Shown here: positions 9,659-41,966 of the stretch, piece after piece
How positions within the stretch are numbered: the first letter of the stretch is position 1
Layout of the letters: each line of letters begins with the position of its first letter
IMG/VR virus record: IMGVR_UViG_3300045988_101358
Coordinates: 1 to 53,847 of that record
Length of the DNA: 53,847 bases
DNA from: a virus
Reading direction: 5' to 3' (one strand)
Translations under genes and position numbers: made by a program
Notes under the pieces: generated by a model
Database searches by the model: none
What the model saw: the letters and a program-made list of their open reading frames with translations, nothing else
Told to the model about the DNA's origin: nothing

Positions 9659-9684
9659 CGCGAGAAAAACAATTAGTTTAATGA
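9659..9684 (+). promoter_or_regulatory. Copy 7 of the 26-nt motif.
   Basis: cgcgag aaaaacaa ttagt ttaatga. Confidence 0.5.
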
Positions 9685-13546: not shown

Positions 13547-16303
13547 ATGCTGGACTTCTTTAAGATTCGCGAACGTGATACGAAAAAAGGAGTCATCGAG
13601 GTCTATCCCGATTTCCTTGTCAAACGTAATGGCGATCTCATGACGAGAGGTAAGGCGTTTTATGCTGTTTGGGATGAAGCAGCAGGTCTGTGGTCCACGG
13701 ACGAGTTTCGACTGATCGAGATTGTGGATATGGAGCTGAGCAAGTATGTGGACGCTAAGAAGTCTGAGAACCCTGAGCGGACATATATTGCCAAGCGCTT
13801 GAGCGATTATGGATCCAAACGATGGGATGATTTCAAACTTTTCCTGTCCAAGGCGCCTGACAATTGCCATGATCTCGATCAGAAGATCATATTTGCTGAT
13901 TCAAAGCCAGATCGAAAGAACTATGCCAGCAAGAAACTTCCATATTCTTTGGATAATGGTAGTTTTGAATCGTATGATGAGCTTATCAGTACGCTGTATG
14001 CTCCTGAAGAACGACAGAAACTTGAATGGGCCATCGGTAGCATATTTACCGGGGACTCAGTCAAGATTCAGAAGTTCATCGTTCTATATGGTGCGCAGGG
14101 TGCAGGTAAGTCCACCTTCCTCGACATCGTTATGCAGCTGTTCAATGGATATTATACGACCTTTGATGCCAAGTCGCTCACTGGATCCAACCAGTTTGCA
14201 ACGGAGGTATTCAAGTCGAATCCTCTTGTAGCCATTCAACATGATGGTGATCTGTCCAGAATCGAGGATAATTCCAGACTCAATTCGATAATCTCACATG
14301 AGCAGATGGCTATGAATGAGAAGTATAAGGCGGTGTATCAGAGCTCCGTCAATGCGTTTTTATTCATGGGCACCAACAAGCCAGTGCAGATCACGGATTC
14401 CAAGTCAGGTCTCATCAGGCGACTCATAGACGTTCAGCCGACAGGTCGAAGGATTCCACCAGAACGATATTTTGTCCTGAAGGATCGAGTGTCGTTCGAG
14501 CTCGGATCTATCGCCACGCATTGTATCGAAGTATATCGCTCCATGGGCCGATACGCCTACGCCGATTATACTCCGCTTGCCATGATGGAAAAGACGGACC
14601 GTCTGTTCAACTTCATCCAGGATAATTTCGATACGCTCGCTGGACAGGAATACACGCCTCTCAAGCAGTTGTGGGACATGTATAAGACGTATTGCGATGA
14701 ATCCAACTTCACGTGGACCATTCCGAAGTTCCAGTTCCGTGAAGAGATGAAGGACTACTTCGAGGAATATTTGCAAAGAACTCAGATTGATGGTACCAGA
14801 TATTATGGTATCTATCATAATCTGAAACAAAACCTCTTTGCGAAGAATCCTCTGGATCTATCGGATAGCGATCAGGAATCCAAGCCATCCAGTCTGGTGA
14901 TGGATCAGAGTACGAGCATTCTGGATGATATTCTGAAGGACTGCCCAGCTCAATACGCCAATTCAACTGGAACCCCCACATTCAAATGGGATCGAGTCAC
15001 GGGAACTCTGAAGGATATCGATACACATAAGCTGCATTATGTGAAGGTCCCGAAGAACATGATCGTGATCGATTTCGATATCAAGAACAACAAGGGAGAG
15101 AAGGACGCTGCGCTCAACATTGAGCAGGCATCCAAACTTCCGCCAACCTATGCCGAATATTCCCAGGGAGGAGCAGGAGTGCATCTGCACTACTGGTGGG
15201 ACGGCGATCCCGACAAACTCAGCAATCTATATTCTGACAATGTCGAGATCAAGGTGTTCCGAGGAGACGCAAGCCTCAGGCGTCGACTTAGTCAATGTAA
15301 CAATCTACCGATCGCCCATATTTCCAGTGGGCTTCCATTGAAGGAGGAAAAACCGGTGATCGATCTGAAGTATGTCAAATCAGAGGCAGGGCTTCGCAAT
15401 CTCATCATGAGAAATCTGCATAAGCAGATTCATCCCGGAACCAAACCAAGTATCGATTTCATCTGTACCATTCTGGACGAAGCATATGAGAACGGCCTCA
15501 AGTATGATGTCACCGACATGAAGCCTGTGATCATAGACTTCGCATCGAAGAGCACACATTGGGCCGACTACTGTCTGAAGGTTGTGAACAACATGAAGTT
15601 CGCATCCGAGGAGAGGAATCGAACTGATCACCCTCTCTATGAAGATGGCGCCATCGCATTCTTCGATATTGAGGTGTTCCCGAATCTGTTCCTGGTGAAT
15701 TGGAAGTATCAAGGCTCGGAGCAGTGCGTTGAGATGATCAACCCTGAACCTGCGGACATGCTGGGTCTGATGAAGCTCAAGCTCATCGGATTCAATTGCC
15801 GTCGGTACGACAACCATCTCATCTATGCACGATATTTGGGTTATGACAACACGCAGCTCTACAACCTCTCGCAGAATATCGTAAACGGCAATCGTGGATG
15901 CATGTTCGGAGAGGCATACAATCTGAGCTACACGGATGTCTATGATTTCTGCTCCAAGAAGCAATCGCTCAAGAAATGGGAGATTGAGCTTGGTATCCAT
16001 CATGAGGAATGGGCTCTGCCTTGGGACCAGCCAGTCGATCCGAAGCTATGGCCGAAGTTGGCGCATTACTGCAACAACGATGTCATCGCTACTGAAAAAG
16101 TGTTCGAAGCACGAGTCGAGGATTGGAACGCCCGAAAGATGTTGGCACGACTGTCTGGTCTGACGGTAAACGACACGACCAACAGCCACGTCATGCAATA
16201 TTTGTTCGGAAACGAGAAGAATCCTCAAAGTCACTTCATCTACACCGATCTCGCCACCGGAAAGCGCTATGCATGGCCTGATGCTCCGGAGTATGTGTCA
16301 TGA
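13547..16303 (+). CDS. Replisome fusion protein: D5/P4-type SF3 helicase, then AEP primase-polymerase, then the family-B DNA polymerase 3'-5' exonuclease domain.
   Basis: Helicase: Walker A GAQGAGKST, Walker B VAIQHDGD, FMGTNKP, GLIRRL. Prim-pol: MIVIDFDIK and SQGGAGVHLHYWW. Exonuclease: Exo I FFDIEVFPN, Exo II IGFNCRRYDNHL, Exo III HYCNNDVIATE. Confidence 0.75.
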   Translation: MLDFFKIRERDTKKGVIEVYPDFLVKRNGDLMTRGKAFYAVWDEAAGLWSTDEFRLIEIVDMELSKYVDAKKSENPERTYIAKRLSDYGSKRWDDFKLFLSKAPDNCHDLDQKIIFADSKPDRKNYASKKLPYSLDNGSFESYDELISTLYAPEERQKLEWAIGSIFTGDSVKIQKFIVLYGAQGAGKSTFLDIVMQLFNGYYTTFDAKSLTGSNQFATEVFKSNPLVAIQHDGDLSRIEDNSRLNSIISHEQMAMNEKYKAVYQSSVNAFLFMGTNKPVQITDSKSGLIRRLIDVQPTGRRIPPERYFVLKDRVSFELGSIATHCIEVYRSMGRYAYADYTPLAMMEKTDRLFNFIQDNFDTLAGQEYTPLKQLWDMYKTYCDESNFTWTIPKFQFREEMKDYFEEYLQRTQIDGTRYYGIYHNLKQNLFAKNPLDLSDSDQESKPSSLVMDQSTSILDDILKDCPAQYANSTGTPTFKWDRVTGTLKDIDTHKLHYVKVPKNMIVIDFDIKNNKGEKDAALNIEQASKLPPTYAEYSQGGAGVHLHYWWDGDPDKLSNLYSDNVEIKVFRGDASLRRRLSQCNNLPIAHISSGLPLKEEKPVIDLKYVKSEAGLRNLIMRNLHKQIHPGTKPSIDFICTILDEAYENGLKYDVTDMKPVIIDFASKSTHWADYCLKVVNNMKFASEERNRTDHPLYEDGAIAFFDIEVFPNLFLVNWKYQGSEQCVEMINPEPADMLGLMKLKLIGFNCRRYDNHLIYARYLGYDNTQLYNLSQNIVNGNRGCMFGEAYNLSYTDVYDFCSKKQSLKKWEIELGIHHEEWALPWDQPVDPKLWPKLAHYCNNDVIATEKVFEARVEDWNARKMLARLSGLTVNDTTNSHVMQYLFGNEKNPQSHFIYTDLATGKRYAWPDAPEYVS

Positions 16304-16619: not shown

Positions 16620-16653
16620 AGTCATCATGGGTAGATATTTGAAAGGATCAACT

Positions 16654-17763
16654 ATGAAGGAATCGGAGCTGATGAAGCCCGATGTGGCATTCCCTGGATA
16701 CAAATACGTCCAGGGGCAGAACATCTACCACGGCATTAATGTCGGACGTGGCGGATATGTCTATGCCGAACCTGGTATGTATAGCAACGTCGGGTTATTT
16801 GATGTGGCATCCCTGCATCCACATTCGATCAAGGAGCTCCACTTATTTGGAGACTACACTGATCGGTATGTGAACATCATGGAGGCCCGTATTGCCATCA
16901 AGCATAAGGACCTCAACAAGGCCAAAGCCATTCTTGGTCCGGCGCTTCAGGGTATTAACCTCGAAAGCGAGCAGGACTTCAAGCAATTGGCCCAGGCATT
17001 GAAAATCGTCATCAACTCAACGTACGGTCTGACCTCAGCAGCATTCCCTAACCGATGTAACGATCCTCGCAACAAGAACAACATCGTTGCTCTGCGTGGC
17101 GCGTTATTTATGGTGGATCTGCAACGGGAATGCCAGAAGCGTGGTTGGACCGTCGCGCATATCAAGACGGATTCCATCAAGCTGCCGAATCTGAATGATG
17201 AGATCAAGGATTTCGTCATGAGTTTCGGTCTGAGGTATGGCTATACATTCGAACTCGAATGCGTCTATGAGAAAATGTGTCTTGTGAACAACTCGACATA
17301 TATTTCCAAGATTGCCGAGGGCGATGACGGTATGCGCCAAAGTAAAGATCCGAACTGCCCTTGGTCTGCCACTGGAGCCCAGTTCCAGCAGCCGTACGTC
17401 TTCAAGACGTTATTTTCCCACGAGAAGATCGAATTCGAGGACATGCGAGAGACCAAATCGGTGACTGGGAAGATGTATCTCGACATGAATGAACGTCTTC
17501 CTGAGGATCAGCACGACTACCAATTCATCGGCAAGGTCGGCCAGTTCACTCCGGTTCTTCCAGGCGAAGGTGGTGGAGTCCTCTATCGAGAGAAAGATGG
17601 TAAATACTATGCCGTCGGTGGAACCAAGGGATATCGCTGGCTGGAGTCCGAATCGGTGAAGAACATCGGCGCCAAGGTTGACCAGAGTTACTATCGCCGT
17701 CTAGTTGATGAGGCGGTGCATGATATTTCCGAGTATGGAGATTTTGAGCAGTTCGCTGCTTAG
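16654..17763 (+). CDS. Family-B DNA polymerase, polymerase (palm/fingers/thumb) part.
   Basis: tttgaaaggatcaact-ATG. Motif A DVASLHPHS, motif B KIVINSTYG, motif C HIKTDSI. Confidence 0.75.
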   Translation: MKESELMKPDVAFPGYKYVQGQNIYHGINVGRGGYVYAEPGMYSNVGLFDVASLHPHSIKELHLFGDYTDRYVNIMEARIAIKHKDLNKAKAILGPALQGINLESEQDFKQLAQALKIVINSTYGLTSAAFPNRCNDPRNKNNIVALRGALFMVDLQRECQKRGWTVAHIKTDSIKLPNLNDEIKDFVMSFGLRYGYTFELECVYEKMCLVNNSTYISKIAEGDDGMRQSKDPNCPWSATGAQFQQPYVFKTLFSHEKIEFEDMRETKSVTGKMYLDMNERLPEDQHDYQFIGKVGQFTPVLPGEGGGVLYREKDGKYYAVGGTKGYRWLESESVKNIGAKVDQSYYRRLVDEAVHDISEYGDFEQFAA

Positions 17764-21681: not shown

Positions 21682-21726
21682 GAGTGCTAGATGTGGGCGT
21701 TTGGTCCTGCATCTAGCACTCTTTTT
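21682..21726 (+). terminator. Intrinsic terminator.
   Basis: gagtgctagatg (16-nt loop) catctagcactc followed by ttttt. Confidence 0.6.
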
Positions 21727-21776
21727 GCCTAAAAAACAGGTGTTTTTCATACTAGATATGTGGTAGAAAACAGCCA

Positions 21777-21950
21777 AATGGCGGTTAGGTGGCGGTTTAC
21801 TCAGCGTAATATCTAGTGCGAAAATGGCCAAAAAGTGGCTAAGTGGCGGTTTAGTGGCGGTCAGGTGGCGGTTTACTCAGCGCAACATCTAGCACGAAGA
21901 AATGGCGGAATTCCAACGTTTTCGAGGGGTAAAAGTGGCAAAGTGGCTGT
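21777..21950 (+). repeat. Iteron array: about 10 same-strand copies of RRTGGC(G)GTT-type decamers, including a roughly 40-bp direct repeat (21787-21826 and 21863-21905).
   Basis: aaatggcggtt, aggtggcggttt, aaatggcca, aagtggcta, aagtggcggttt, tagtggcggtc, aggtggcggttt, aaatggcgga, aagtggcaa, aagtggctg. Confidence 0.8.
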
Positions 21951-22030
21951 TTTTACCTATTTTTCCTTAAAAAAATTATTTATAGAAACGTATAAAAAAG
22001 TACCCTTCCAGAAAAGTTTCAAAAGTAAAC
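21951..22030. promoter_or_regulatory. AT-rich segment next to the iterons (candidate DNA-unwinding element, or the promoter region of the helicase operon).
   Basis: tttttacctatttttccttaaaaaaattatttatagaaacgtataaaaaag... Confidence 0.4.
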
Positions 22031-23339: not shown

Positions 23340-23365
23340 CGCGAAAAAAACAACTACCTTTATAG
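23340..23365 (+). promoter_or_regulatory. Copy 8 (most degenerate) of the 26-nt motif.
   Basis: cgcgaa aaaaacaa ctacc tttatag. Confidence 0.4.
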
Positions 23366-23729: not shown

Positions 23730-24283
23730 AATTCAATGATCATCATCAACTTGATGGTATGCATTCATTTTTGAGTGCATCGAAGTGGCATTGGGTAAAT
23801 TACGCACCTGAGCATCTCGATGATATTTATCGCTCATCGATGGCTGCACAGCTTGGAACCGAACTTCATGCTTTGGCTTCAGACCTTATCAAGCATGGCG
23901 TGAAGCTTCCGCGCAATAAGAAGACACTCAACCAGTTTGTTAATGATGCTATTGGTTGGAAGATGGCTTCCGAGCAAGTTCTGTTTTATTCTATGAATGC
24001 TTTTGGCACAGCTGATGCTATTTCCTTCGATGGCAAGCTGCTTCGCATTCATGATCTTAAGACTGGAGTCATTCCGGCTCATATGGAGCAGCTTGAAATC
24101 TATGCTTCATATTTTTGCCTTGAGTATGACGTGAAGCCTGAAGACATCGACATGATTCTGAGGATCTATCAGAATGATGACATTGTCGAGGTAGAACCCG
24201 AACCTCAGGATATTCGTGACATCATGGGTAAGATCGTACTCTTTGACAAACGTATTGAACAACTCAAGCAGGAAGGAGTCTGA
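23726..24283 (+). CDS. PD-(D/E)XK (RecB/Cas4-like) nuclease.
   Basis: GTELHAL..., FGTADAISFDGKLLRIHDLKTG, QLEIYASY. Confidence 0.55.
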   Translation: MKFNDHHQLDGMHSFLSASKWHWVNYAPEHLDDIYRSSMAAQLGTELHALASDLIKHGVKLPRNKKTLNQFVNDAIGWKMASEQVLFYSMNAFGTADAISFDGKLLRIHDLKTGVIPAHMEQLEIYASYFCLEYDVKPEDIDMILRIYQNDDIVEVEPEPQDIRDIMGKIVLFDKRIEQLKQEGV

Positions 24284-24284
24284 C

Positions 24285-27182
24285 ATGTTCGTGGTTGACG
24301 AATCTGAACTTGAACATTCCGGAACTCCTCATGCTGGAAGTGTTCCGCATTCCGGTCGATACAAGTGGGGCTCTGGAGAAAATCCAGGTCAGCACGACAA
24401 TTCGTTCAGAACTCAATATAGGAATTTCAAGAAGCAGGGTTTTACTGAAGCCGAAATTGTCAAAGCAATGGGGCTTAAGTCTACTGCTGAACTTCGAGTT
24501 CTAAACAAGGTCAATCGTGAACAGGAAGGCTTCGAGCAGACCCAGCGAGCTAGGAAGCTGATTGAAGAGAACGGATATTCTCTATCCGCAGCAGCTCGTA
24601 AGGTTGGCTTGAGTGAGTCGACGCTTCGCAGTCGTCTTAAGAGTTCTTTCGAAGAGCGAGCTTCTCGTACTTCGAAGGCTGCATCATATTTGCAGGAGCA
24701 AGTCGACAAAGGCGCTCTTGTGGATGTCGGTGAAGGCTCTTGGACTTATCTTGGAGTCTCCAAGGCTGTGCTCGATGCAGCTGTCCGTAAGCTGAAGGAT
24801 CAAGGATATTCTGTTGAGACTATCGAAGTCCCTCAGGTTTCCGATCCCGATCATATGACTAAGATCAAAGTTCTGGCGCCGAAAGGTATGGCTTGGAAGG
24901 ATATTCAGGCTAACAAGAACAAGATTCAAGTGATCGACCACAGCTTTGATGAATCTCCGCTTATTTCCAAATCAGACAAAACGCTCCCTGAGAGCGTCAG
25001 TTCTAAGAGAGTCAAGGTTGTCTTTGATGAGGAAGGTGGAACTCAGCGAGATGGAAATATTCTTGTTCGTCCTGGCGTCGAAGATGTAGCTCTTGGTGGT
25101 AATCACTACGCTCAGGTTCGAATCGCCGTGGATGGGACACACTATCTTAAGGGTACTGCCATGTATGGTGACCCTAAGGATTTCCCTCCTGGTGTCGATC
25201 TCATTTTCAATTCCAACAAACCAAGATCTGTTGGCAAGCTTGGTGCTTTGAAAGAGCTGAAGACCGACAAAGATGGTAAAATTGATCAGAACCTTCCTTT
25301 TGGTGCTGTGACTCGTAAGCTTACCTACACTGACAAGAATGGTCAGGAACATATTTCCAAGATCAATCTTGTTCGTGAGGAAGGCGAATGGGATACCTGG
25401 TCTAGGAATCTTCCTTCTCAGATGCTGTCTAAGCAATCTCGTGAGCTGGCTCATCGCCAGTTGGGCATTGCTTATGAACGTTCTTTCTCTGAGTATCAGG
25501 ATATTCTCAAGCTGAGTAATCCTGCCGTCAAGCGAAAGCTTCTTCAGGAATTTTCTGATGAGTGTGATCGTAAGGCTGTGGATCTCAAAGCTGCTGCGAT
25601 GCCTCGTCAGTCTACCCATGTTATTCTCCCGATTCCTTCTTTGAAGGACAACGAAATATATGCTCCTTCATTCCGTAATGGCGAACGAGTTGCATTGATT
25701 CGATTCCCTCATGGTGGAACGTTTGAGATTCCAGAGCTTATTGTAAATAACAATAACCGTGAAGCTCGACAGCGTTTGGGGAATGGCAAGGGCATGTCTC
25801 TTGATGCGGTTGGTATTAACCATAAGGTTGCTGCTCGACTTTCTGGAGCTGACTTTGATGGCGATACTGTTCTGGTTATTCCAAACAATCGTGGAGAAAT
25901 TAAGAGTACTAATCCTCTTAAGGGTCTTGAAGACTTTGATCCTTCTTCAGCTTATCCAGCATATCCTGGAATGAAGAAAGTCAAGACTGATAAGGCTTTT
26001 AATAAGCAGGCTGAAATGGGAAAGGTCAGTAATCTTATTACTGACATGACCATTAAGGGTGCTACTCCTGATAAGATCGCTCGTGCTGTTCGTCATTCTA
26101 TGGTTGTCATCGATGCTGAAAAGCATAATTTGGATTGGCGTAAATCCTATGAGGATAATGGTATTGCTGATCTTAAACGAGAGTATCAGGGCACTGCTCC
26201 TAATGGCCAGCTTCGTGGCGCATCGACTCTTATTTCTCGAGCATCTGCTACGCAATATGTGAATGCTCGAGAAAAAAATCCTGCAAGATATGGAGGTTCC
26301 ATAGATCCCGATACTGGAAAAATATGGTATAGGGAAACTGGAAAGGGCTCTACGGAAGTTGCTTATCGTGACCCTACCAAACCAGGAAAGAGGCCAGGCT
26401 CTCCAGGTAGGAAGACCTGGGCTTCAGAGCGCAAGTTCCATGCTCTTGTAAAGAAGGGTGAAATTCCGGAATCTACAAAAATTATAGATACCAGGTTTAA
26501 GCCCCGTCTTCAGGAGTCTAAGAAGATGCTTGAAGTAGATGATGCTTTTGAGTTGTCTTCTGGTACCAACATGGAATGGGAGTATGCTACCTATGCTAAT
26601 AGGATGAAGGCCCTAGCTAATGATGCTAGAAAGGCTTTGCTAGCCACTCCTAATGCGCCCTATAGTCCATCCGCCCATAAGGCCTACGCTGAAGAGGTGG
26701 CTTCTCTCAAGGCTAAGCTTAACACAGCCTTGAAGAACAAGCCTCTTGAACGCAAGGCTCAGCTCATTGCCGGTAACATAGTACGCAGCCAGCGCATCTC
26801 TAACCCTGACCTAGACGAAGACGAGTTGAAGAAGCTGCGCACCACAGCGCTTGAGACAGCTCGTGCTAGGACAGGAGCACTCAATGCTGAAGGCAAGCGT
26901 GTAACATTCACTCCACGTGAATGGGAAGCTGTGCAAGCTGGTGCCATCTCCCATACCATGCTCACTGAGCTGCTGAAGAACGCAGACAGTGGTGTGGTAA
27001 AGGAGCTTGCTACACCACATAGTGACAAGGGTAAGATGAACAATGTCTTGATTGCTCGTGCTCGAGCCTTGCTCAATGCAGGCAACATGACACAGAATGA
27101 AGTGGCTGATCTACTTGGCGTTAGTGTTAACACCTTGAAGGCCAACCTCAACCCCAAGTCGAAGTTGAATCAAGAGAGGTGA
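24285..27182 (+). CDS. 965-aa HTH-flanked protein with a beta-prime-like double-psi beta-barrel catalytic motif (candidate YonO/RdRP-like single-subunit RNA polymerase).
   Basis: ggaaggagtctgac-ATG. ERVALIRFPHGGTFEIPELIV...VGINHKVAARLSGADFDGDTVLVIPNN parallels beta-prime R-x-P-x-x-H ... NADFDGDQM. HTH-like segments at the N-terminus (GYSLSAAARKVGLSESTLRSRL) and C-terminus (MTQNEVADLLGVSVNTLKANL). Confidence 0.45.
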   Translation: MFVVDESELEHSGTPHAGSVPHSGRYKWGSGENPGQHDNSFRTQYRNFKKQGFTEAEIVKAMGLKSTAELRVLNKVNREQEGFEQTQRARKLIEENGYSLSAAARKVGLSESTLRSRLKSSFEERASRTSKAASYLQEQVDKGALVDVGEGSWTYLGVSKAVLDAAVRKLKDQGYSVETIEVPQVSDPDHMTKIKVLAPKGMAWKDIQANKNKIQVIDHSFDESPLISKSDKTLPESVSSKRVKVVFDEEGGTQRDGNILVRPGVEDVALGGNHYAQVRIAVDGTHYLKGTAMYGDPKDFPPGVDLIFNSNKPRSVGKLGALKELKTDKDGKIDQNLPFGAVTRKLTYTDKNGQEHISKINLVREEGEWDTWSRNLPSQMLSKQSRELAHRQLGIAYERSFSEYQDILKLSNPAVKRKLLQEFSDECDRKAVDLKAAAMPRQSTHVILPIPSLKDNEIYAPSFRNGERVALIRFPHGGTFEIPELIVNNNNREARQRLGNGKGMSLDAVGINHKVAARLSGADFDGDTVLVIPNNRGEIKSTNPLKGLEDFDPSSAYPAYPGMKKVKTDKAFNKQAEMGKVSNLITDMTIKGATPDKIARAVRHSMVVIDAEKHNLDWRKSYEDNGIADLKREYQGTAPNGQLRGASTLISRASATQYVNAREKNPARYGGSIDPDTGKIWYRETGKGSTEVAYRDPTKPGKRPGSPGRKTWASERKFHALVKKGEIPESTKIIDTRFKPRLQESKKMLEVDDAFELSSGTNMEWEYATYANRMKALANDARKALLATPNAPYSPSAHKAYAEEVASLKAKLNTALKNKPLERKAQLIAGNIVRSQRISNPDLDEDELKKLRTTALETARARTGALNAEGKRVTFTPREWEAVQAGAISHTMLTELLKNADSGVVKELATPHSDKGKMNNVLIARARALLNAGNMTQNEVADLLGVSVNTLKANLNPKSKLNQER

Positions 27183-27187
27183 GACAC

Positions 27188-27433
27188 ATGGAACAATACA
27201 TGCTGTCCACCAAGGACAATCCTTACAGCCCTTGGACTCAATGGACTGCTTGGTATGGTTGGGATGAGCAACATGGTTACCATTCAACCGCTTTGCTCGG
27301 TCGCTTCGCTCGCACTAGCGATACATTGAGTGACATTGATCAAATGAAAGTAGTCAGCGATGCTATAGATAGTATTATAGCTCTGTATTCGGATTCTCCT
27401 TTTATCAAAATTAAAAAACCAGAAAGCATTTGA
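27188..27433 (+). CDS. Conserved phage protein of unknown function (81 aa).
   Basis: MEQYMLSTKDNPYSPWTQWTAWYGWDEQHGYHS. Confidence 0.6.
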   Translation: MEQYMLSTKDNPYSPWTQWTAWYGWDEQHGYHSTALLGRFARTSDTLSDIDQMKVVSDAIDSIIALYSDSPFIKIKKPESI

Positions 27434-27798
27434 GTTTCTGATTTTATAAAATTTTTGATAAAGAGGTCCGAAGACATAGGGGGGGGTCGCGAAAACAACG
27501 ACCCCCTCAGCATCGCCGGCCTCCTGGAAAAATCCCCGGCGGGAATTTTTGATAGAACATTACGGGTTCGCCAGGCAAACAAGTAGCCGGGTGGCCCATG
27601 AATCCTTCTCAGATACCCAGGCTCTCCTTTCAAAGAGCCCAAGAAAGTATGGTGGAACGTAGATTGTGCAGCGAGTTCCTTTCGTTAACCATATTCAATC
27701 TTGGGTAAAGTCCTGGTGAACCCATAAAGTTCTATCACAAACTCTCGTCATATTTCCAGGTGATCTTGCTTTCGAGCTAATTTGGAGGTGAATCACGT
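27434..27798. promoter_or_regulatory. Structured 365-bp non-coding region upstream of terS. Probable packaging-initiation (cos/pac) region.
   Basis: No credible ORF. Several GC-rich hairpins, a G8 tract, and direct repeats atttttgata (27451 and 27545). Lies immediately 5' of the terS-HNH genes. Confidence 0.45.
27479..27486 (+). repeat. Poly-G tract (G8) forming the 5' arm of a hairpin.
   Basis: ataggggggggtcg cgaaaacaa cgaccccct. Confidence 0.85.
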
Positions 27799-30194: not shown

Positions 30195-30580
30195 GTTCCG
30201 AAACTGACGACACTCTTATTCAGAACAGCATTCTCAACACCGAGAAGAAGATGCTTGGGATTGATCTCGATGATGACGCATTCGATGACGAGCTTCTTGT
30301 TCACATCAATGGTATTGTTATGACGCTGCATCAGCTCGGCGTCGGTGTTGATCAACACTTTAATGTGGATGACAATACTACTACATGGGATGAACTGCTT
30401 GATAATCGCGATGATCTTCAAGCAGTGAAGACTTACATTTATCTTAAGCTTCGCCAACAGTTTGACCCGCCAACTAATTCATTTGTTCTCACTTCCATTG
30501 AGAAGCAGATCACAGAATTGGAATGGCGTTTAAATGTTCAGGCCGAAGCGACTCATCCTGTGTCACCTATTGGAGGTTGA
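30191..30580 (+). CDS. Possible gp6-like head-tail connector protein.
   Basis: LGIDLDDDAFDDELLVHINGIVMTLHQ... resembles connector/adaptor N-termini. Weak call. Confidence 0.3.
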   Translation: MSSETDDTLIQNSILNTEKKMLGIDLDDDAFDDELLVHINGIVMTLHQLGVGVDQHFNVDDNTTTWDELLDNRDDLQAVKTYIYLKLRQQFDPPTNSFVLTSIEKQITELEWRLNVQAEATHPVSPIGG

Positions 30581-30581
30581 T

Positions 30582-31712
30582 ATGAGAGTCGCTTTCGATG
30601 AACAACCTTCGGATCAGGATCTTCAGCACTTTGGCGTTAAGGGTATGAAGTGGGGCGTTCGTAACTACACCGACAAGAACGGTCGACTCACTGCCGAAGG
30701 ACGAGAGCACTATGCCGAGAAGTCATTAACCAAACATCAGCAGAAGATCTCTGCGAAATGGCAGGCGCGTGGTCTGAGTAAGGCGGATGCTGATGTTCAG
30801 GCTAAGCGACGTGCAGAGGTCGAACGAATGTTAGCCATCACTGGTGGTGTCACGGCCGCAGCTGCCACTGCTTATATTGTTGGTAAGCATCTTGATCGTA
30901 CCACAGACAAACTTCTTGGTAAGGGGTCTGAGGTTGGTCGTGTGGCTACTAATAATAGCAAGAAGATGGAAGACGCCTTCTATGTGTTCGACAATGCTAA
31001 AGATCGTGCCAAGTATGTTGGAATGTATGGCAAAGCTCTTAAGGATCAGGGCGGTACTTCCATATTTGAGAAGTCGCTTAAAGTTGTTGGTGACGTGAAG
31101 GTCGCTTCTCCTGAAACTGGTAGAAAGGTCTTTGCGAATCTTATTTCTCGCGATCCTGAGGTTATGGCATATGCCAAACAGACTTTTCGACTTAGAAGTG
31201 AGTTCGACCCTCTTCCAAATCGTCAAGCGCTTTGTTCGAAAGCTCTTGATGACATCAATCATGGCAAATGGACAAAATCCGCTTATGAGGCTTTCAATAT
31301 CGGGTTGGTAGATCATAGTCCGATCGGTAATAAAGTCTCATCTAAATTCTATAGCCAATTGAAGAAAGACGGCTTCTCTGCTATTCGTGATGTCAACGAT
31401 CATTCGTTCTCCGGTTACAATTCGAAGAATCCTTTGATCATATTCGATAAGGATAAGGTTGATGTTCAATCTGCTAAAGCCTTGTCGAAGGATGTCATTG
31501 ACAAAACCAACGATATGGCCGTTAATGATCTTCTTATGTCTGACGTAACTAAAAGTGTTGCCAAAATCGGTGTGGCGGCGGTTGGAGCCACTGTTGCCCG
31601 TCGGGTTACCAGTCAGATTGCCGAAGATAATTATATTAAGAATTATCTTCTGGATCATCCGAATACCAAGCTTAACCGTGATGGCATTCTTAAGACTCGT
31701 GGGCTAGAATAG
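30582..31712 (+). CDS. Protein with the N-terminal FDE..DLQHFGVKGMKWG motif (family member 1).
   Basis: MRVAFDEQPSDQDLQHFGVKGMKWGVRNY. Confidence 0.65.
   Translation: MRVAFDEQPSDQDLQHFGVKGMKWGVRNYTDKNGRLTAEGREHYAEKSLTKHQQKISAKWQARGLSKADADVQAKRRAEVERMLAITGGVTAAAATAYIVGKHLDRTTDKLLGKGSEVGRVATNNSKKMEDAFYVFDNAKDRAKYVGMYGKALKDQGGTSIFEKSLKVVGDVKVASPETGRKVFANLISRDPEVMAYAKQTFRLRSEFDPLPNRQALCSKALDDINHGKWTKSAYEAFNIGLVDHSPIGNKVSSKFYSQLKKDGFSAIRDVNDHSFSGYNSKNPLIIFDKDKVDVQSAKALSKDVIDKTNDMAVNDLLMSDVTKSVAKIGVAAVGATVARRVTSQIAEDNYIKNYLLDHPNTKLNRDGILKTRGLE
30625..30661 (+). repeat. Perfect 37-nt direct repeat, copy 1 (copy 2 at 34194-34230).
   Basis: agcactttggcgttaagggtatgaagtggggcgttcg. Confidence 0.9.
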
Positions 31713-31722: not shown

Positions 31723-33468
31723 ATGGCGTTATCGAACACCGCAGTACCGAAGTATTATGGTGAATTCCGTGACGCCGTTATTCACGGAGAGATTCCAGTC
31801 TGCAAAGAGATTGCGATGGAGATGAATCGCATTGATTCCCTCATTGCAAATCCTGGTATCTACTATGATGAGTCTGCTGTCGAGGGATGGATCAAGTTCT
31901 GCGAGAAAGAACTTACTCTGACCGATGGTACCGATCTTCACCTTCTTGATTATTTCAAGGTTTGGGGTGAAGAGGTCTTTGGATGGTATTATTACGTTGA
32001 ACGCAGCGTATATGTGCCAAACGAAGATAATCATGGCGGCCATTACGAGCGTAAGAGAATTCTCAAGCGCTTGACCAACAAGCAGTATCTTATCGTGAGT
32101 CGAGGCGCAGCTAAGTCTATGTATGACGCCTGTATTCAGGCCTATTTCATGACCGTGGACACCTCGACGACCCATCAGATCTGTACTGCTCCTACTATGA
32201 AGCAGGCGGAAGAGACCATGTCTCCTCTGCGTACCGCTATTACTCGAGCTAAGGGTCCTCTCTTCCAATTTCTCACCGAAGGCTCTCTTCAGAATACTAC
32301 AGGGTCCAGAGCAAATCGCATGAAGTTGGCTTCTACTAAGAGAGGTATTGAGAACTTTCTTACAGGAAGCCTTCTTGAGGTTCGCCCTATGTCTATCGAT
32401 AAACTTCAGGGCCTTCGCCCTCGAATTTCAACAGTAGATGAATGGCTTTCCGGTGATATTCGTGAAGACGTCGTTGGCGCTATCGAACAGGGTGCTTCGA
32501 AGCTTGATGATTATCTTATCATAGCATCTTCTTCCGAGGGTACTGTTCGAAATAGTGCTGGCGATACCATCAAGATGGAGCTTATGGATATTCTGAAGGG
32601 CGACTATGTCAACCCTCACGTGTCTATATGGTATTATCGTCTTGATGATGTTCATGAAGTTAACGATCCGAGCACCTGGCTTAAAGCCAATCCTGGTCTT
32701 GGAAAGATTGTTACCTACGAGACATATCAGCTTGATGTAGAGCGAGCCGAGAAAGCTCCAGCTACTCGAAATGATATTCTAGCCAAACGATTCGGAATTC
32801 CTATGGAAGGTTATACATACTTCTTTACCTATGAAGAGACTCTTCCTCATAGGCGTCAAGATTTCTGGAATCTTCCATGCTCAATGGGTGCCGATCTTTC
32901 GCAAGGCGATGATTTCTGTGCTTTCACCTTCTTGTTCCCTCTTAAGAATGGAACCTTTGGCGTAAAGACTAGATGCTATATTTCTTCCAGAACAATGGCA
33001 AACCTTCCGTTGGCTATGCATCAGAAGTATGAAGACTTTCTTAACGAAGCCAGCCTTCAGGTTCTTGATGGTACAGTTTTGGATATGATGGATGTCTATG
33101 ATGACTTGGATAAGTATATTATAGACAGCAAATATGACGTTCGATGTTTTGGATTCGATCCATATAATGCTCGTGACTTTGTTTCTCGATGGGAAACGGA
33201 GAATGGCCCATATGGTATCGAAAAAGTGATTCAGGGAGCTAAGACGGAATCGGTTCCTCTTGGTGAACTGAAGCATCTATCCGAAGATCGCTCGCTTATA
33301 TTTGATCAACAATTATTCACATTCACTATGGGCAATGCTATTACTCTTGAAGATACCAATGGCAATCGAAAACTTCTGAAAAAGCGTTACGATCAGAAGA
33401 TCGATGCCGTAGCGGCTCTTCTTGATGCATGGGTTGCCTATAAACTCAACAGGGAGGCATTCGACTAA
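31723..33468 (+). CDS. terL: Terminase large subunit.
   Basis: 581 aa. MALSNTAVPKYYGEFRDAVIHGEIPVCKE...YLIVSRGAAKSMY (ATPase Walker A-like) and a C-terminal nuclease region, typical of the Terminase_1 family. Sits upstream of the portal. Confidence 0.8.
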   Translation: MALSNTAVPKYYGEFRDAVIHGEIPVCKEIAMEMNRIDSLIANPGIYYDESAVEGWIKFCEKELTLTDGTDLHLLDYFKVWGEEVFGWYYYVERSVYVPNEDNHGGHYERKRILKRLTNKQYLIVSRGAAKSMYDACIQAYFMTVDTSTTHQICTAPTMKQAEETMSPLRTAITRAKGPLFQFLTEGSLQNTTGSRANRMKLASTKRGIENFLTGSLLEVRPMSIDKLQGLRPRISTVDEWLSGDIREDVVGAIEQGASKLDDYLIIASSSEGTVRNSAGDTIKMELMDILKGDYVNPHVSIWYYRLDDVHEVNDPSTWLKANPGLGKIVTYETYQLDVERAEKAPATRNDILAKRFGIPMEGYTYFFTYEETLPHRRQDFWNLPCSMGADLSQGDDFCAFTFLFPLKNGTFGVKTRCYISSRTMANLPLAMHQKYEDFLNEASLQVLDGTVLDMMDVYDDLDKYIIDSKYDVRCFGFDPYNARDFVSRWETENGPYGIEKVIQGAKTESVPLGELKHLSEDRSLIFDQQLFTFTMGNAITLEDTNGNRKLLKKRYDQKIDAVAALLDAWVAYKLNREAFD

Positions 33469-33953
33469 TGCGTGTAACATTTGATGAGGAACCAACCCCA
33501 GAAGATCTCGAACATTATGGTGTTCTTGGTATGAAATGGGGCCATCGCCGTGTGCAAGTAGCTCAGGCCAAGGCTGCTAAAGCTAAGTCTAAGCTGAGTG
33601 GCACCGAAAGAGGAACCAAGGCTTATTCTAAAGCCAATGCTAAGTATCAGAAGGCTACTGCTAAGGCTCGCACTCGCAAAGCTGTCTATGAAGGCGTTTA
33701 CAGCAATGCTAAAGCTCGTAAGCGTGTTGAGAGGCAGTCTATGGGTAAGACCCTTGCTCAGGCATTCGTCATGGGCGACTTTGGTGCTATGAAGTATAAC
33801 GAGGCTCGTGCTGCTGGTATTAATAGGGGCAGGAGTTTCGTGAATGGAATGGCCGGTGACGTCGCTAATCAGATGCTCTTTAGTCTTCCTAACCAGTTAG
33901 GCGGTGTCGCTAAAGCTAGCAAGGTTCGAAAGTCTTTGAAGTCTAAGGCGTGA
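33468..33953 (+). CDS. Basic protein with the N-terminal FDE..DLEHYGVLGMKWG motif (family member 2).
   Basis: MRVTFDEEPTPEDLEHYGVLGMKWGHRRV. Confidence 0.65.
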   Translation: MRVTFDEEPTPEDLEHYGVLGMKWGHRRVQVAQAKAAKAKSKLSGTERGTKAYSKANAKYQKATAKARTRKAVYEGVYSNAKARKRVERQSMGKTLAQAFVMGDFGAMKYNEARAAGINRGRSFVNGMAGDVANQMLFSLPNQLGGVAKASKVRKSLKSKA

Positions 33954-33958
33954 TTGTC

Positions 33959-34636
33959 ATGTCCAATAAGAAGAATTTCGCCTATACTCCGGATGATATT
34001 CCTTCTCATTGGAAGCTTGATATTTCGGATCGAGAGCATGTCATCATGGCCAAGACAGCTCTGGAAAAGGGCTTTCGTGGCCAAAAAGTCCGTATTCCGG
34101 ATGAAGATATGCCGGCTGTAATTAACAAAGTTAATGCCGCAGCTCGTAAATACAAGCTTTCTCCAATCGGGGAGGAATCGAAAGACACCGTCGAGCACTT
34201 TGGCGTTAAGGGTATGAAGTGGGGCGTTCGAAAGAAGCGTCGGTCTGCTGACTTCAATGAAGCGCAACGTCTTCGTAAGAAGAATCCAGATACTCTTTCA
34301 AACAAAGAACTTCAGACTCTTAATACTCGTATGAATCTCGAAAATCAATACCGTACCAATCGAATTAACAATCAGAGTCAAGCTCGCAAATATGCGAAAC
34401 AGATTTTAGTTGGCACAGCAGTCAGTACAGCTACAGCTATAATGGCTAAAAACTATCCGGAACTAATTTCATCCGGGAAGTCTCTGGCTAGTAAAATTCT
34501 TAATACTCCTCAGGCTAAAGAACTTGTTGTTGACCCTATAGTTGGGGTAAAGAACAACGCCGGTCGTAAAGTAGTTAAGGGCGCCGTTGATGCTGCTAAT
34601 GCTGCTGTGAGCCTTAAACGAAAGTTTAAGAAATGA
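33959..34636 (+). CDS. Protein with an internal VEHFGVKGMKWGVRKKR motif (family member 3).
   Basis: Start at ATG 33959 (GTG 33950 is an alternative). The motif lies about 80 residues in, followed by LSNKELQTLNTRMNLENQY. Confidence 0.6.
   Translation: MSNKKNFAYTPDDIPSHWKLDISDREHVIMAKTALEKGFRGQKVRIPDEDMPAVINKVNAAARKYKLSPIGEESKDTVEHFGVKGMKWGVRKKRRSADFNEAQRLRKKNPDTLSNKELQTLNTRMNLENQYRTNRINNQSQARKYAKQILVGTAVSTATAIMAKNYPELISSGKSLASKILNTPQAKELVVDPIVGVKNNAGRKVVKGAVDAANAAVSLKRKFKK
34194..34230 (+). repeat. Perfect 37-nt direct repeat, copy 2.
   Basis: Identical to 30625-30661. Confidence 0.9.
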
Positions 34637-36516: not shown

Positions 36517-36537
36517 TTAAAGAAAGGATAAGTGGAC

Positions 36538-38496
36538 ATGAAGTTTGACTTTAGCGGTTACGCCACTAAGAACAATATTCGTTGTTCTGATGGTCGGACT
36601 ATCATGCATGATGCTTTCAAGGAAATGGATGGTAAGACCGTTCCCCTTGTTTGGCAGCATATGCATGACAATCCAGAGAACGTTCTTGGTCATGCACTTC
36701 TGGAGAATCGCGATAATGGTGTGTACTGCTACTGCTCGCTGAATAACACTCCGGCTGGTGAGAATGTCAAGTCGTTGCTCGAGCATGGTGATATCGACGC
36801 TTTGTCCATTTACGCAAACCAGTTGGTCCAGAATCAGGGAAGAGTTATGCATGGAGTGATCCGTGAAGTATCCGTTGTCCTGGCTGGTGCCAATCCTGGC
36901 GCTCTCATTGATAATGTTGCCATTCAGCATTCCGATGGTGCTATTGACGAGCTTGCTGATGAAGCGGTCATCACTTCTGATGACTACATCTGTCATGCTT
37001 CTGGTTCTGTGGAACCGGATGATTCTGAGGAAGATGATACCGAAGAATCGGGTTCTGATGATAAGACCGTCAAGGATGTGTGGGACACCTTCTCTGAAGA
37101 TGAGAAGAACGTTGCATACTACATGATCGGCACTGCTGCTCAGTCTGGCAATGGAAATTCTGAAGTCGCACAGTCTGCGTTTGCGCATGCTGATGAAGAA
37201 GATCTTCCTAGTGACGATTCTTCTGATGAGGAAGGCCCTACTGTAAAAGACATCTGGGATTCCATGTCGGAAGAGAAGAAAAATGTTGTCTACTACCTGA
37301 TTGGTCAGGCTCTGAAGAATGCAGGTAAGTCGGGCAATAGCGAGTCCGAAGACTCCGCTAGTAATAATCAAAATGGTGGTAAGTCCACCGCTTCAAATGA
37401 AGGAGATAGTTCTATGAAGCACAATGTGTTCGAGAACGATGGAGCTTCGGATTCCATGATCGGATTGGATCATGAGACCGCGCTCACCCTGCTGCATGAT
37501 GCTATGTCTGATACGCAGCTTCGTGGTTCGTTCAAGGATTCCGTCATCGCCCATGCGGATTCTTACGGCATCAAGGATATCGAAATCCTCTTCCCGGATG
37601 CCAAGTCCGTCACCCAGACCCCGGACTTCGTCAAGCGTCGTACCGACTGGGTCGATACCTTTGTGAACGGCCTGCATAAGTCCCCGTTCTCTCGTATCAA
37701 GTCAATGGCTGCGGACATCACTGCCGATGAGGCTCGTGCGAAGGGTTACATCAAGGGCAAGCAGAAGATCGAAGAGATCTTCGGTGTGTCCAAGCGTGTA
37801 ACCCTCCCGCAGACCATTTACAAGAAGCAGAAGCTCGATCGCGATGACATCATTGACATCACTGACTTTGATGTCGTGGTCTGGCTGAAGGCCGAGATGC
37901 AGCTGATGCTGCGTGAGGAAGTCGGTCGTGCTATTCTGATCGGCGATGGCCGTACTGTTGGCGCCGAGGGTAAGATCAACGAGGAGAACATCCGCCCGAT
38001 CTGGACCGACGATGAGTTCTACACCATCCATAAGGATGTCCAGGCGTTCGATCCGAATACCCTGACCACCGAGCAGGGTTCTGCCCTGATCAAGACCATC
38101 ATCTCGTCCATGGATGAATACGAGGGCAACGGAACTCCGACGCTCTTCGCTTCTCCGGCCACGATTACCGCTCTGCTTCTTCTTGAGGACAAGATCGGTC
38201 GTCGTCTGTTCAACAACCTAAGCGACCTTGCGTCCGCTCTGGGTGTTGCCGCTGTGGTGAAGGTCCCGGTGCTCAAGGGCGCTCATCGTAATGTAAGTGG
38301 CGCTGAGAAGGATCTGGTCGGCATCATCGTCAACCCGGCGGATTACTTCGTCGGTGCTGACAAGGGTGGCGAGCTCAACTTCTTCGACGACTTTGATATC
38401 GACTTCAACCAGTACAGGTACCTGTACGAGACTCGTATGTCTGGTGCTCTGGTGCATCCGAAGACGGCCATCGCGCTCGAAGCCCCAAAAGCGTGA
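36538..38496 (+). CDS. Prohead protease, acidic scaffold-like linker and HK97-type major capsid protein, all fused in one ORF.
   Basis: N-terminus: FSGYATKNNIRCSDGRTIMHDAF...VPLVWQHMHD...REVSVVLAGANPGA (HK97-family prohead protease). Acidic linker with the duplicated motif TVKD(V/I)WD(T/S)(F/M)SE(D/E)(E/K)KNV(A/V)YY(M/L)IG. C-terminal about 330 aa is capsid-like. Confidence 0.7.
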   Translation: MKFDFSGYATKNNIRCSDGRTIMHDAFKEMDGKTVPLVWQHMHDNPENVLGHALLENRDNGVYCYCSLNNTPAGENVKSLLEHGDIDALSIYANQLVQNQGRVMHGVIREVSVVLAGANPGALIDNVAIQHSDGAIDELADEAVITSDDYICHASGSVEPDDSEEDDTEESGSDDKTVKDVWDTFSEDEKNVAYYMIGTAAQSGNGNSEVAQSAFAHADEEDLPSDDSSDEEGPTVKDIWDSMSEEKKNVVYYLIGQALKNAGKSGNSESEDSASNNQNGGKSTASNEGDSSMKHNVFENDGASDSMIGLDHETALTLLHDAMSDTQLRGSFKDSVIAHADSYGIKDIEILFPDAKSVTQTPDFVKRRTDWVDTFVNGLHKSPFSRIKSMAADITADEARAKGYIKGKQKIEEIFGVSKRVTLPQTIYKKQKLDRDDIIDITDFDVVVWLKAEMQLMLREEVGRAILIGDGRTVGAEGKINEENIRPIWTDDEFYTIHKDVQAFDPNTLTTEQGSALIKTIISSMDEYEGNGTPTLFASPATITALLLLEDKIGRRLFNNLSDLASALGVAAVVKVPVLKGAHRNVSGAEKDLVGIIVNPADYFVGADKGGELNFFDDFDIDFNQYRYLYETRMSGALVHPKTAIALEAPKA

Positions 38497-40874: not shown

Positions 40875-41966
40875 ATGCAAGGTATTGATATTTCGAATTG
40901 GCAGGCTGGTATCAACGTAGCCGCCGTTCCGTGCGATTTTGTTATTTCCAAGGCCACTCAGGGCACTGGTTATGTAAGCCCGGATTGCGCTCGTCAGGTT
41001 GAACAGGCTCTTGCCGCCGGTAAGGCTGTTGGCATCTATCATTATATTAATGGTGCCGGAGCAGTCGCCGAGATGGACTACTTCTACAATAACTGCAAGG
41101 GTTGGATGGGCAAGGTTGTCTGGTGCCTTGACTGGGAATCCCAGGAGAATGGCGCTTGGGGCAACACCGGATATCTCGACCAGTGCATCAAGCGTCTGGC
41201 TCAGCTTACTGGAAAGCCTCCTATCGTATACGCGTCTGCTAGTGCCTTCCCGTGGAACGTTGCTAGCGCAAATAACTGCGGTACTTGGGTTGCTCAGTAT
41301 GCCAACATGAATGCTACCGGCTATCAGGATTCTCCGTGGAATGAAGCTGCATACAACTGCGCTATTCGTCAGTATTCTTCGGCTGGTCGTCTGCCTGGTT
41401 ACAACGGCGCCCTGGATCTTAACAAGTTCTACGGTGATCGTGCAACTTGGAACAAGTATATCGCTGGTGGCTCTGGTAATGCCCCCGCCCCTGCACCTGC
41501 TCCGGCGAGGAAGTCGAACGATCAGATCGCTTCTGAGGTGATCGCCGGCGCTTGGGGTAACGATCCTGATCGTTCCAATCGCCTTCGTTCTGCCGGATAC
41601 GATCCTGCTGCGATTCAGGCCATCGTTAATGGCCGCCTTGGCGGAGGTTCTTCCTCTGGACGCACTTACGTGGTTCAGCCTGGCGATACTGTTTCTGGTA
41701 TTGCAGCTAAGTTTGGTGTTCCGACTTCGGCCGTCAGTGGTTTCCGTTCTGGCAACCCCAATCTCATCTATCCTGGTGAGACTTTGACGATCGGCGGAGG
41801 TTCTGCCCCAGCTCAGTCCAATGTGCTTCGCTACACCGTTCAGCCTGGCGATACTGTCTCTGGCATAGCTGCTAAGTTCGGTGTTGGTATTGGTGCTGTG
41901 AGTGGTTTCCGTTCCGGTAACCCCAATCTCATCTATCCTGGTGAGACCCTTACGATCAGGAAGTGA
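40875..41966 (+). CDS. Endolysin: GH25 muramidase plus two C-terminal LysM domains.
   Basis: MQGIDISNWQAGINV...FVISKATQGTGYVSP...GIYHYINGA...CLDWE (GH25). Two copies of Y(V/T)VQPGDTVSGIAAKFGV...GNPNLIYPGETLTI (LysM). Confidence 0.85.
   Translation: MQGIDISNWQAGINVAAVPCDFVISKATQGTGYVSPDCARQVEQALAAGKAVGIYHYINGAGAVAEMDYFYNNCKGWMGKVVWCLDWESQENGAWGNTGYLDQCIKRLAQLTGKPPIVYASASAFPWNVASANNCGTWVAQYANMNATGYQDSPWNEAAYNCAIRQYSSAGRLPGYNGALDLNKFYGDRATWNKYIAGGSGNAPAPAPAPARKSNDQIASEVIAGAWGNDPDRSNRLRSAGYDPAAIQAIVNGRLGGGSSSGRTYVVQPGDTVSGIAAKFGVPTSAVSGFRSGNPNLIYPGETLTIGGGSAPAQSNVLRYTVQPGDTVSGIAAKFGVGIGAVSGFRSGNPNLIYPGETLTIRK

Follow-up and report, generated by a model that had tools for sequence, protein, structure and literature searches.

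A single-chain, two-barrel RNA polymerase-like protein with flanking helix-turn-helix modules in a cos phage genome: a candidate virion-packaged transcriptase

The 53,847-nucleotide (nt) stretch of viral DNA analysed here in full (IMG/VR record IMGVR_UViG_3300045988_101358; hereafter the window) carries a plus-strand gene for a protein of 965 amino acids (aa) that resembles the single-chain RNA polymerases built on two double-psi barrels. The open reading frame (ORF) spans 24216-27182 and its ATG at 24285 gives the 965-aa product; a GGAAGGAG ribosome-binding site precedes that ATG, the stop codon of the upstream exonuclease gene lies 1 nt before it, and the homologues of the protein all begin at the equivalent residue. 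The gene and the parts of its product, from the N-terminus onward, are the following.

24285-27182, plus strand: 965-aa single-chain two-barrel RNA polymerase-like protein (ORF and start codon, full-length PHROG 4291 match, AlphaFold and Foldseek)
24309-24392, plus strand: disordered, DUF7211-like N-terminal peptide, aa 9-36 (family-invariant motif LxH(Y)G...SGRY(P/K)WGSGxNPxQ; predicted local distance difference test score, pLDDT, below 50)
24405-24707, plus strand: N-terminal helical region, aa 41-141, with two helix-turn-helix (HTH) units (Pfam, aa 92-122; model helices 41-62 and 100-118)
25002-25379, plus strand: predicted first (beta-like) double-psi barrel region, aa 240-365 (strand pattern of the model; invariant D256-G257, R279 and K289-G290)
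25611-25883, plus strand: predicted second (beta'-like) double-psi barrel, aa 443-533 (model, conservation, and hhalign comparison with the YonO family)
25701-25712, plus strand: R473-F-P475-H476, aa 473-476, in the second barrel
25851-25865, plus strand: putative metal-binding D523-F-D-G-D527, aa 523-527, in the second barrel
25941-26240, plus strand: conserved helical segment 3' of the catalytic loop, aa 553-652, including MGKVSNLITDM and VRHSMVVIDAEKH
26886-27149, plus strand: C-terminal HTH region, aa 868-955 (Pfam, aa 922-956; model helices 877-909 and 920-955)

The fold of the protein was examined in an AlphaFold2 model built from 56 homologues, which has a mean pLDDT of 82.6 and a predicted template modelling (pTM) score of 0.71, and in which disorder is limited to the first 38 residues and short linkers. 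Comparison of the model with the Protein Data Bank (PDB) by Foldseek gave as best match QDE-1 of Neurospora (E 5e-8, probability 1.0), followed by gp62 of phage P74-26, a non-virion RNA polymerase (E 3.9e-6), then by Arabidopsis RDR2 (E 2e-4) and by bacterial beta' and eukaryotic Rpb1 (E ~5e-3); the first 18 matches were all at probability 1.0. Among viral models, the top Foldseek match was a protein named RNA-dependent RNA polymerase (RdRP). Global template modelling (TM) scores were ~0.28 at 10-12% identity, low as expected for multi-domain proteins. The matches to QDE-1, P74-26 gp62, RDR2 and beta'/Rpb1 support a two-barrel fold for the predicted structure.

Conservation within the family is concordant with such a fold being kept for catalysis. 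The acidic triad of the second barrel, D523-F-D-G-D527, is invariant in both aligned sets of homologues (n = 56 and n = 32), as are R473 and P475, and in the larger set H476, M578, G579, N583, L584, D587 and M588 are invariant as well, as are H604, D610 and H614 of the aa 553-652 segment. Besides RxPH, ~80 other positions of the core do not vary among the aligned homologues, the most distant of which are 38% identical. The pattern D.DGD is present in all 268 retrieved homologues, its first occurrence reading DFDGD in 266 of them (a regular-expression tally and not a count at aligned positions); in the six-frame translation of the window it occurs twice, the second time in a non-coding frame. 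D256-G257, R279 and K289-G290 of the first barrel are invariant in two alignments. Two-barrel polymerases share eight invariant residues, to which the first barrel of QDE-1 contributes D709, R738 and K743 (PMC2919709), and by order and spacing D256, R279 and K289 would be the corresponding D/R/K set of the window protein.

A preliminary description of this gene, made from the nucleotide letters and their translation, had proposed a candidate non-canonical single-subunit RNA polymerase, and had named two outcomes that would speak against the proposal, the absence of a double-psi barrel fold and an acidic triad that varies among homologues. As the fold was found and the triad is conserved, neither outcome arose, and the proposal is supported by fold, triad and family profile, though it is not new. 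The position it gave for DFDGD is exact; the upstream segment ERVALIRFPHGGTFEIPELIV (beginning ERVALIRFPHGG) is present too, at 25683-25745, 2 nt from the 25681-25743 assigned to it there. A downstream element, EMGKVSNLITDM (nt 26013-26048), had been likened to one in RdRP-like enzymes, and in a profile-profile comparison it aligns with IGEISNNITK of YonO, the RNA polymerase of the Bacillus prophage SPbeta. Profile searches for the suspected kinship to RdRPs gave a mixed outcome: the Pfam RdRP family PF05183 was matched in 10 of 10 members, but every score lay under the curated cut-off (13.2-19.1 bits against a gathering threshold of 23.8; E 6e-4 to 0.036), with matches that cover profile positions 426 to ~510, around DxDGD, and aa 514-614 of the window protein. 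From the fold and the conserved residues, the protein is very probably a catalytically competent two-barrel nucleotide polymerase.

The profile of PHROG 4291, "RNA-dependent RNA polymerase", matches the protein from aa 15 to 956 (profile positions 13-906 of 909; E = 0, 1104 bits). Full-length homologues at 36-48% identity were identified by tblastn in at least 250 deposited phage genomes, with hosts that include Arthrobacter, Gordonia, Streptomyces, Rhodococcus, Lactococcus and Faecalibacterium; in GenBank they are named mostly "helix-turn-helix DNA-binding protein", and also "hypothetical protein" or "RNA-dependent RNA polymerase". A large protein collection holds at least 7,991 family clusters at 90% identity, and an exhaustive search with the catalytic core alone as query found at least 1,221 clusters at 50% identity; almost every one of these is 880-1040 aa long and has the core in the same place. 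Sequences identical to the 965-aa protein occur in metagenome assemblies only, the closest homologue from an isolated phage is at most 48% identical, and nucleotide similarity never exceeds 90 bp. Since sequence searches of the PDB with the whole protein, the family profile and the catalytic core returned HTH proteins or noise only, the kinship to two-barrel polymerases is visible only through profiles and structure.

The family had been described before. It was reported in 2021 as the signature gene of a supercluster of actinophages and Lactococcus and Faecalibacterium phages, with the order HTH, RdRP-like region, HTH, with DxDGD, and with Pfam RdRP as an HHpred match (bioRxiv 10.1101/842583), and an earlier review had placed the protein of Lactococcus phage 1706 among "YonO-like" proteins (PMC2919709). 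The window protein is thus a new member of a family already known computationally, and the idea of the preliminary description was right but anticipated. In the literature searched, we did not find a prior connection of the polymerase to the virion, of its N-terminus to DUF7211, or of the family to an early promoter.

Both ends of the polymerase core are flanked by HTH modules. Pfam matches that exceed the curated cut-offs are those of HTH_23 (aa 92-122) and of HTH_3 and HTH_7 (aa 922-956); further matches are to HTH_8 and Sigma70_r4_2 at aa 92-122 and to HTH_24 at aa 922-956, and matches to Sigma70 region 4 and to LuxR-type HTH domains recur across the homologues. The flanking segments foreseen from the sequence, two at the N-terminus and one at the C-terminus, are thus real, and the helices of the model fit two units at the N-terminus and probably two at the C-terminus. 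The opinion that such flanks are not a trait of YonO was well founded, given that YonO has no Pfam match at all and that its relatives carry no HTH annotation.

A second line of evidence concerns a candidate promoter, a 26-nt element of the form CGCGWAAWTTACA-N5-YWTAATGA, which in the window occurs as TCGCGARAWWWACAAYNNNNTTAATGA at eight sites against 0 expected. All eight copies lie on the plus strand between ORFs, most of them just upstream of a ribosome-binding site, and they fall into two places.

3367-9684, plus strand: seven copies in the early region, starting at 3367, 3888, 5044, 5177, 7900, 8860 and 9659; the block begins directly after the holin gene, the last of the late region
23340-23365, plus strand: eighth copy, ahead of the endonuclease-exonuclease-polymerase operon; same spot in L003, L008 and Arthrobacter phage Mudcat (55497)

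The same 26-mer is found at seven sites in Mudcat (shuffle mean 0.15), six at the start of its early region and one in the gap before the endonuclease-exonuclease-polymerase genes, and the polymerases of the two phages are 45% identical while their genomes have no nucleotide similarity. Phage 1706 has a variant, ACAWG-TTTTACA-N5-CTATAGTAGA, at 12 sites (shuffle mean 0.1), all in the early or middle region. The shared core is TTACA-N5-(C)TATA(A/G)T, with its blocks 5-6 nt apart, which is not the spacing of sigma-70 -35 and -10 boxes. Because the Shine-Dalgarno sequence abuts the element in 1706, a transcript starting 7 nt past TATAGT would lose it. Within 1706 genome positions 24024-46455, the core of the element, ACACTATAGTAGA, also resembles positions -5 to +6 of the T7 promoter (CACTATAGGGAGA), a likeness that is probably coincidental and is compatible with initiation inside the element. 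Two explanations were rejected: that the element is specific to the window phage, which is ruled out by the Mudcat copies, and that it is a plain sigma-70 promoter, given that two of the eight sites fit one, that the blocks are 5-6 nt apart, and that the element recurs in an Arthrobacter phage and, as a variant, in a Lactococcus phage. Its conservation in sequence and position across phages of Actinomycetota and Bacillota hosts is explained most simply if it is recognised by a factor that these phages all encode, the evident candidate being the HTH-bearing polymerase.

Four independent leads converge on the virion: a depositor label, portal-linked variants, the N-terminal motif, and the occurrence of DUF7211 as a tag. 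The first comes from phage 1706, whose orf75, homologous over the full length (38% identity, E 4e-176), is called a "structural protein" in the depositors' record (EU081845), with most other 1706 ORFs left as "unknown"; the note to ReqiPepy6 gp106 repeats the label. The second comes from high-GC actinophage head modules in which the polymerase is found at the C-terminus of a larger protein. One such protein, P0135 (1789 aa; L009 1866-7235), has portal domain PF04860 (E 2.9e-29), ~660 aa, and then the polymerase, in frame, and its gene lies between the terminase and protease-capsid genes. In another, P0128 (1809 aa; L010 229-5658), the polymerase gene begins where the portal gene ends, at its stop codon. 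Both proteins keep DFDGD but have neither the N-terminal motif typical of the family nor the first HTH unit, and P0135 is without the last HTH as well. In passing, part of P0128 looks like a kinase on visual inspection, and the protein has a weak DUF3626 match.

The N-terminal motif itself, LxHYG..R.SGRYPWGSG, has H11, G13, S23, G24, R25, G29, S30 and G31 invariant in 56 homologues. Pfam PF23847 (DUF7211) is weakly matched by 7 of 24 polymerase N-termini (best E 0.0012), and when a hidden Markov model (HMM) of the motif was run against a database of 1,181 segments, the three best non-self matches were all DUF7211 proteins (best E 0.025). Three head-module proteins of the window carry this domain, as do head-module proteins of each relative that was examined.

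30534-31712, plus strand: DUF7211 protein 1, 392 aa, directly upstream of the large terminase gene (PF23847 E 1.2e-9)
33468-33953 and 33950-34636, plus strand: DUF7211 proteins 2 and 3, 161 and 228 aa, between the large terminase and portal genes (PF23847 E 2.2e-9 and 9e-10)

DUF7211 proteins thus flank the terminase gene in the window, with three copies, and they do so also in L007, Mudcat, P162 and 1706, the arrangement of proteins 2 and 3 being the same in L007 and Mudcat. The positional equivalent of protein 1 in phage 1706, orf7, was likewise deposited as a "structural protein". As tblastn with a DUF7211 protein reached just 8 phage records, in keeping with fast divergence, a degenerate DNA pattern was used instead. 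The domain (HYGVKGMKWG) is present in at least 120 viral contigs, and of the 209 instances in 120 contigs ~80% lie within the first 30 residues; the domain is often repeated, is often followed by basic tails rich in K, R and A, and occurs on several proteins around the terminase and portal genes (loci L011-L130). Among the domains joined to it are a 2H phosphoesterase (L089) and a toxin-like glutamine deamidase of the papain fold (L018). A 2H phosphoesterase (2'-5' RNA ligase-like) is also found in the polymerase variants P0068, P0096, P0112 and P0192, where it stands N-terminal to the HYG...WGSG motif, so that the polymerase motif sits where DUF7211 sits in other 2H proteins. A faint match to the 2H domain family was seen for the prohead protease protein of L009 as well. 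Literature searches on DUF7211 and on the virion proteomics of relatives yielded nothing usable.

The gene belongs to a cos phage genome. Bases 1-141 and 53707-53847 of the window are a terminal repeat with 100% identity, from which it follows that the window is a circular contig and the genome 53,706 bp long. In the right arm the polymerase gene comes last but one, and it ends the replication and nuclease block in the order endonuclease, exonuclease, polymerase, 84-aa conserved gene, cos, an order found also in Mudcat, P162, ReqiPepy6 and 1706.

27179-27433, plus strand: 84-aa conserved gene (phrog_4303), always after the polymerase gene; equivalents are Mudcat gp95, P162 gp82 and 1706 orf76
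27480-27550, no strand assigned: cos region, with G-rich hairpin GGGGGGGGTCGCGAAAACAACGACCCCC, right end ...CATCGCCGGCCT (27511-27522) and left end CCTGGAAAAATCCCCGGCGGG from 27523

The cos junction CATCGCCGGCCT / CCTGGAAAAATCCCCGGCGGG matches the physical ends of Mudcat, which has 9-base 3' cohesive ends (PMC5513430), and resembles the ends of P162 and 1706. Another hairpin, which has a T-run, is found a short way inside the left end, and both hairpins and the end sequence are common to Mudcat, P162 and 1706. The left arm continues with an HNH gene, the large terminase, the portal, a protease-capsid fusion, tail genes and a holin. The fused prohead protease-major capsid gene (phrog_3270) is at 36532-38496, and the same fusion is known from Arthrobacter phages of clusters AM and AU (PMC5513430). 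No other RNA polymerase was found among the ~30 larger ORFs of the window that were scanned. The phage encodes its own primase-polymerase, on account of which the idea that the polymerase-like protein is the phage primase was rejected.

Several side observations were made elsewhere in the window. The primase-DNA polymerase (phrog_4210) is split in two ORFs, 13547-16303 and 16627-17763, with 323 nt between them. It is a single unsplit protein of 1305 aa in L007 and phage 1706, and the split recurs in the 78%-identical L003, whose gap holds a 71-aa ORF. Rfam and transfer RNA scans of the window, the 323-nt gap included, were empty, so that Rfam detects no intron there. Four overlapping GTGGCGGTTTA-type repeats at 21766-21875, in a 367-nt gap before the helicase gene, are a possible replication origin, and strong terminator-like hairpins at 21682-21721 and 21927-21958 flank them. 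The tandem genes 620-1060 and 1342-1854 match PHROGs of the tail-fibre or baseplate type and share with ORF 2103-2564 a conserved 47-nt N-terminal segment, which suggests diversified receptor-binding modules. Tandem duplications are present at 47105-47476 (186 nt x2, inside the gene of the 2644-aa tape measure protein) and at 41673-41957 (120 nt x2, inside ORF 40875-41966).

On this evidence, we consider it likely that the protein is a DNA-dependent transcriptase for phage genes. A DNA-dependent, promoter-specific enzyme is suggested because a double-stranded DNA (dsDNA) phage has no RNA stage and because three or four HTH modules flank the core; the "RNA-dependent" label in databases would then be a name transferred from Pfam RdRP. 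Overall, we lean towards a DNA-dependent phage transcriptase that is probably packaged in the virion and starts early transcription, the packaging taken by itself being close to evenly balanced. By analogy with the superfamily, the catalytic magnesium would be bound by D523, D525 and D527 in the loop of the second barrel, and the rest of the site for the nucleotide and the RNA 3' end would be formed by R473 and P475 and, from the first barrel, by D256, R279 and K289. The 26-nt element would be the promoter, as comparative genomics suggests from its place at the head of early gene units and of the operon that contains the polymerase gene. The polymerase would be synthesised alongside the structural proteins, would attach inside the capsid close to the portal by means of its disordered DUF7211-like N-terminal peptide, and would be delivered with the DNA to start early transcription, as in phage N4, crAss-like phages and P23-45.

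A broader form of this proposal is more tentative, and we regard it as possible but on balance doubtful. The whole family would be the virion polymerase of Gram-positive siphoviruses; the DUF7211-type peptide LxHYG...G(R/M)(Y/K)(P)WG would be a general capsid-loading tag, shared by cargo such as basic internal proteins, the 2H phosphoesterase and the papain-fold deamidase toxin; the portal fusion would replace the tag in one clade; and the HTH modules would read the 26-bp early promoter across two host phyla.

A number of observations weigh against the packaged transcriptase. The structural proteins of 1706 were reportedly identified by mass spectrometry of virions, and non-structural proteins that co-purify with 1706 virions are a possible explanation of the orf75 label. 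The in-frame portal fusion is found on one metagenomic contig only (SRR12949875), and the matches by which PF23847 and the motif HMM connect the polymerase N-terminus to DUF7211 are weak. The polymerase gene is translationally coupled to replication and nuclease genes, as is typical of middle genes, and a protein of 108 kDa must traverse a long siphovirus tail. As to the element, two of the eight window copies also fit a near-consensus sigma-70 promoter (TTTACA-17-TATAAT), and the early region is enriched in sigma-70-like promoters (25 against 14.6 +/- 4.3) and in intrinsic terminators (15 against 5.6 +/- 2.0), on account of which these sites could be read by the polymerase of the host, either unaided or assisted by a phage factor. 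Literature searches found no biochemical study of any PHROG 4291 family member.

The alternatives differ in how much of this they accommodate. The strongest of them, which we nevertheless hold to be unlikely, is that the enzyme, like YonO, is a non-virion transcriptase, which is produced in the course of infection from genes that the host transcribes and then itself transcribes the long late structural operon across cos. The gene directly precedes the late operon, a position that yonO has in SPbeta too, and YonO transcribes late genes as one operon (PMC5467207). In the window, the ~29-kb late region is co-directional and not enriched in sigma-70-like promoters or terminators, no promoter-like site was found in its 275-nt leader, and the early region looks host-transcribed, all of which would suit such an enzyme. 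However, none of the copies of the 26-nt element in the window, Mudcat or 1706 precedes the late genes, and a non-virion enzyme leaves the "structural protein" label of 1706 orf75, the portal-linked variants and the DUF7211-like N-terminus unexplained. A place at the end of the replication and nuclease block, and the iteron-like repeats at 21766-21875, would instead fit a replication enzyme that makes RNA primers or an origin-activating transcript, or that polymerises DNA as archaeal PolD does, for PolD shows that the fold is capable of it (PMC10770324). We regard this role as very improbable, since the phage already encodes a ~1300-aa primase-polymerase fusion, the closest folds are all RNA polymerases, and in one clade the polymerase gene is in the head module.

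A true RdRP that copies phage or host transcripts into double-stranded or antisense RNA has a slimmer chance still. It would agree with the best structural and Pfam matches, which are eukaryotic RdRPs, and QDE-1 is reported to have both activities (PMC9508822). Against it, the multiple HTH modules point to recognition of double-stranded DNA, and the phage is a dsDNA cos phage with no RNA stage. The characterised phage relatives, which are YonO, P23-45 gp64 and gp96 and crAss gp66, are moreover DNA-dependent. Least probable of all is a DNA-binding regulator or packaging accessory in which the polymerase core is a catalytically dead scaffold. Most GenBank records do read "helix-turn-helix DNA-binding protein" and the gene adjoins the cos site, yet DxDGD in 268 of 268 homologues and the invariance of RxPH and ~80 core positions argue for selection on catalysis. 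The DNA-dependent transcriptase, probably carried in the virion, therefore remains the reading that we favour.

Single-chain two-barrel RNA polymerases are rare experimental objects that bear on the origin of cellular RNA polymerase. The present family comprises at least 1,221 clusters at 50% identity and is encoded by at least 250 cultured phages, many of them in teaching collections, and most of the records still say helix-turn-helix. Should promoter recognition indeed be built into the enzyme, a single chain would amount to a minimal holoenzyme; with a defined 26-bp promoter, if that is real, it would offer an orthogonal transcription tool for Gram-positive bacteria; and a shared packaging peptide, if real, could be used to load proteins into phage capsids. 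These proposals are testable on existing phages, namely 1706, the P087 group, Mudcat and ReqiPepy6.

To our knowledge, characterised single-chain two-barrel RNA polymerases are essentially limited to YonO, crAss gp66, P23-45 gp64 and gp96, and QDE-1. YonO, a characterised DNA-dependent enzyme of similar size (PMC5467207), is encoded directly upstream of a late structural operon, as is the window protein, and relatives of YonO also touch Pfam RdRP. Alignment of the family with a 23-member YonO alignment by hhalign was marginal (E 0.022, probability 2%), although it brings RxPH, DxDGD and (M/I)GxxSNxIT into collinear register with similar spacing; against the single YonO sequence, hhalign gave just an irrelevant 19-column match, and homologue searches with the window protein and with YonO did not overlap among the best matches listed. 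By sequence and profile, the window protein does not fall in the YonO family, nor does it have the HTH-free architecture of that family. In addition, it lacks the C-terminal Cys4 cluster of YonO, whereas its DUF7211-like N-terminus is not seen in the YonO family consensus.

QDE-1 and RDR2 (Pfam PF05183) resemble the window protein in being single chains with a beta-like barrel followed by a beta'-like barrel that bears the DxDGD loop. They differ in that no HTH flanks are annotated for them (from annotation, as their sequences were not scanned), whereas the window protein has HTH modules at both ends, and their context is RNA silencing rather than a phage. The fold of P74-26 gp62 / P23-45 gp64 is the second-best structural match, and P23-45 gp64 and gp96 are DNA-dependent (PMC10770324). 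With the virion polymerases phi14:2 gp66 and P23-45 gp96, which have two barrels, and N4 vRNAP, which has an unrelated fold, the window protein would share the proposed mode of being packaged, delivered with the DNA and directed to conserved early promoters. It is much smaller than gp66 or N4 vRNAP, has no tape measure fusion and carries HTH modules, and, unlike the known virion polymerases, its virion location is suggested by the depositor label of one homologue and by gene context. The closest counterparts remain the PHROG 4291 proteins 1706 orf75, ReqiPepy6 gp106 and Mudcat gp94, which are homologous to the window protein over their full length with the same domain order, and whose genes occupy the same penultimate position before cos with the same small gene after the polymerase.

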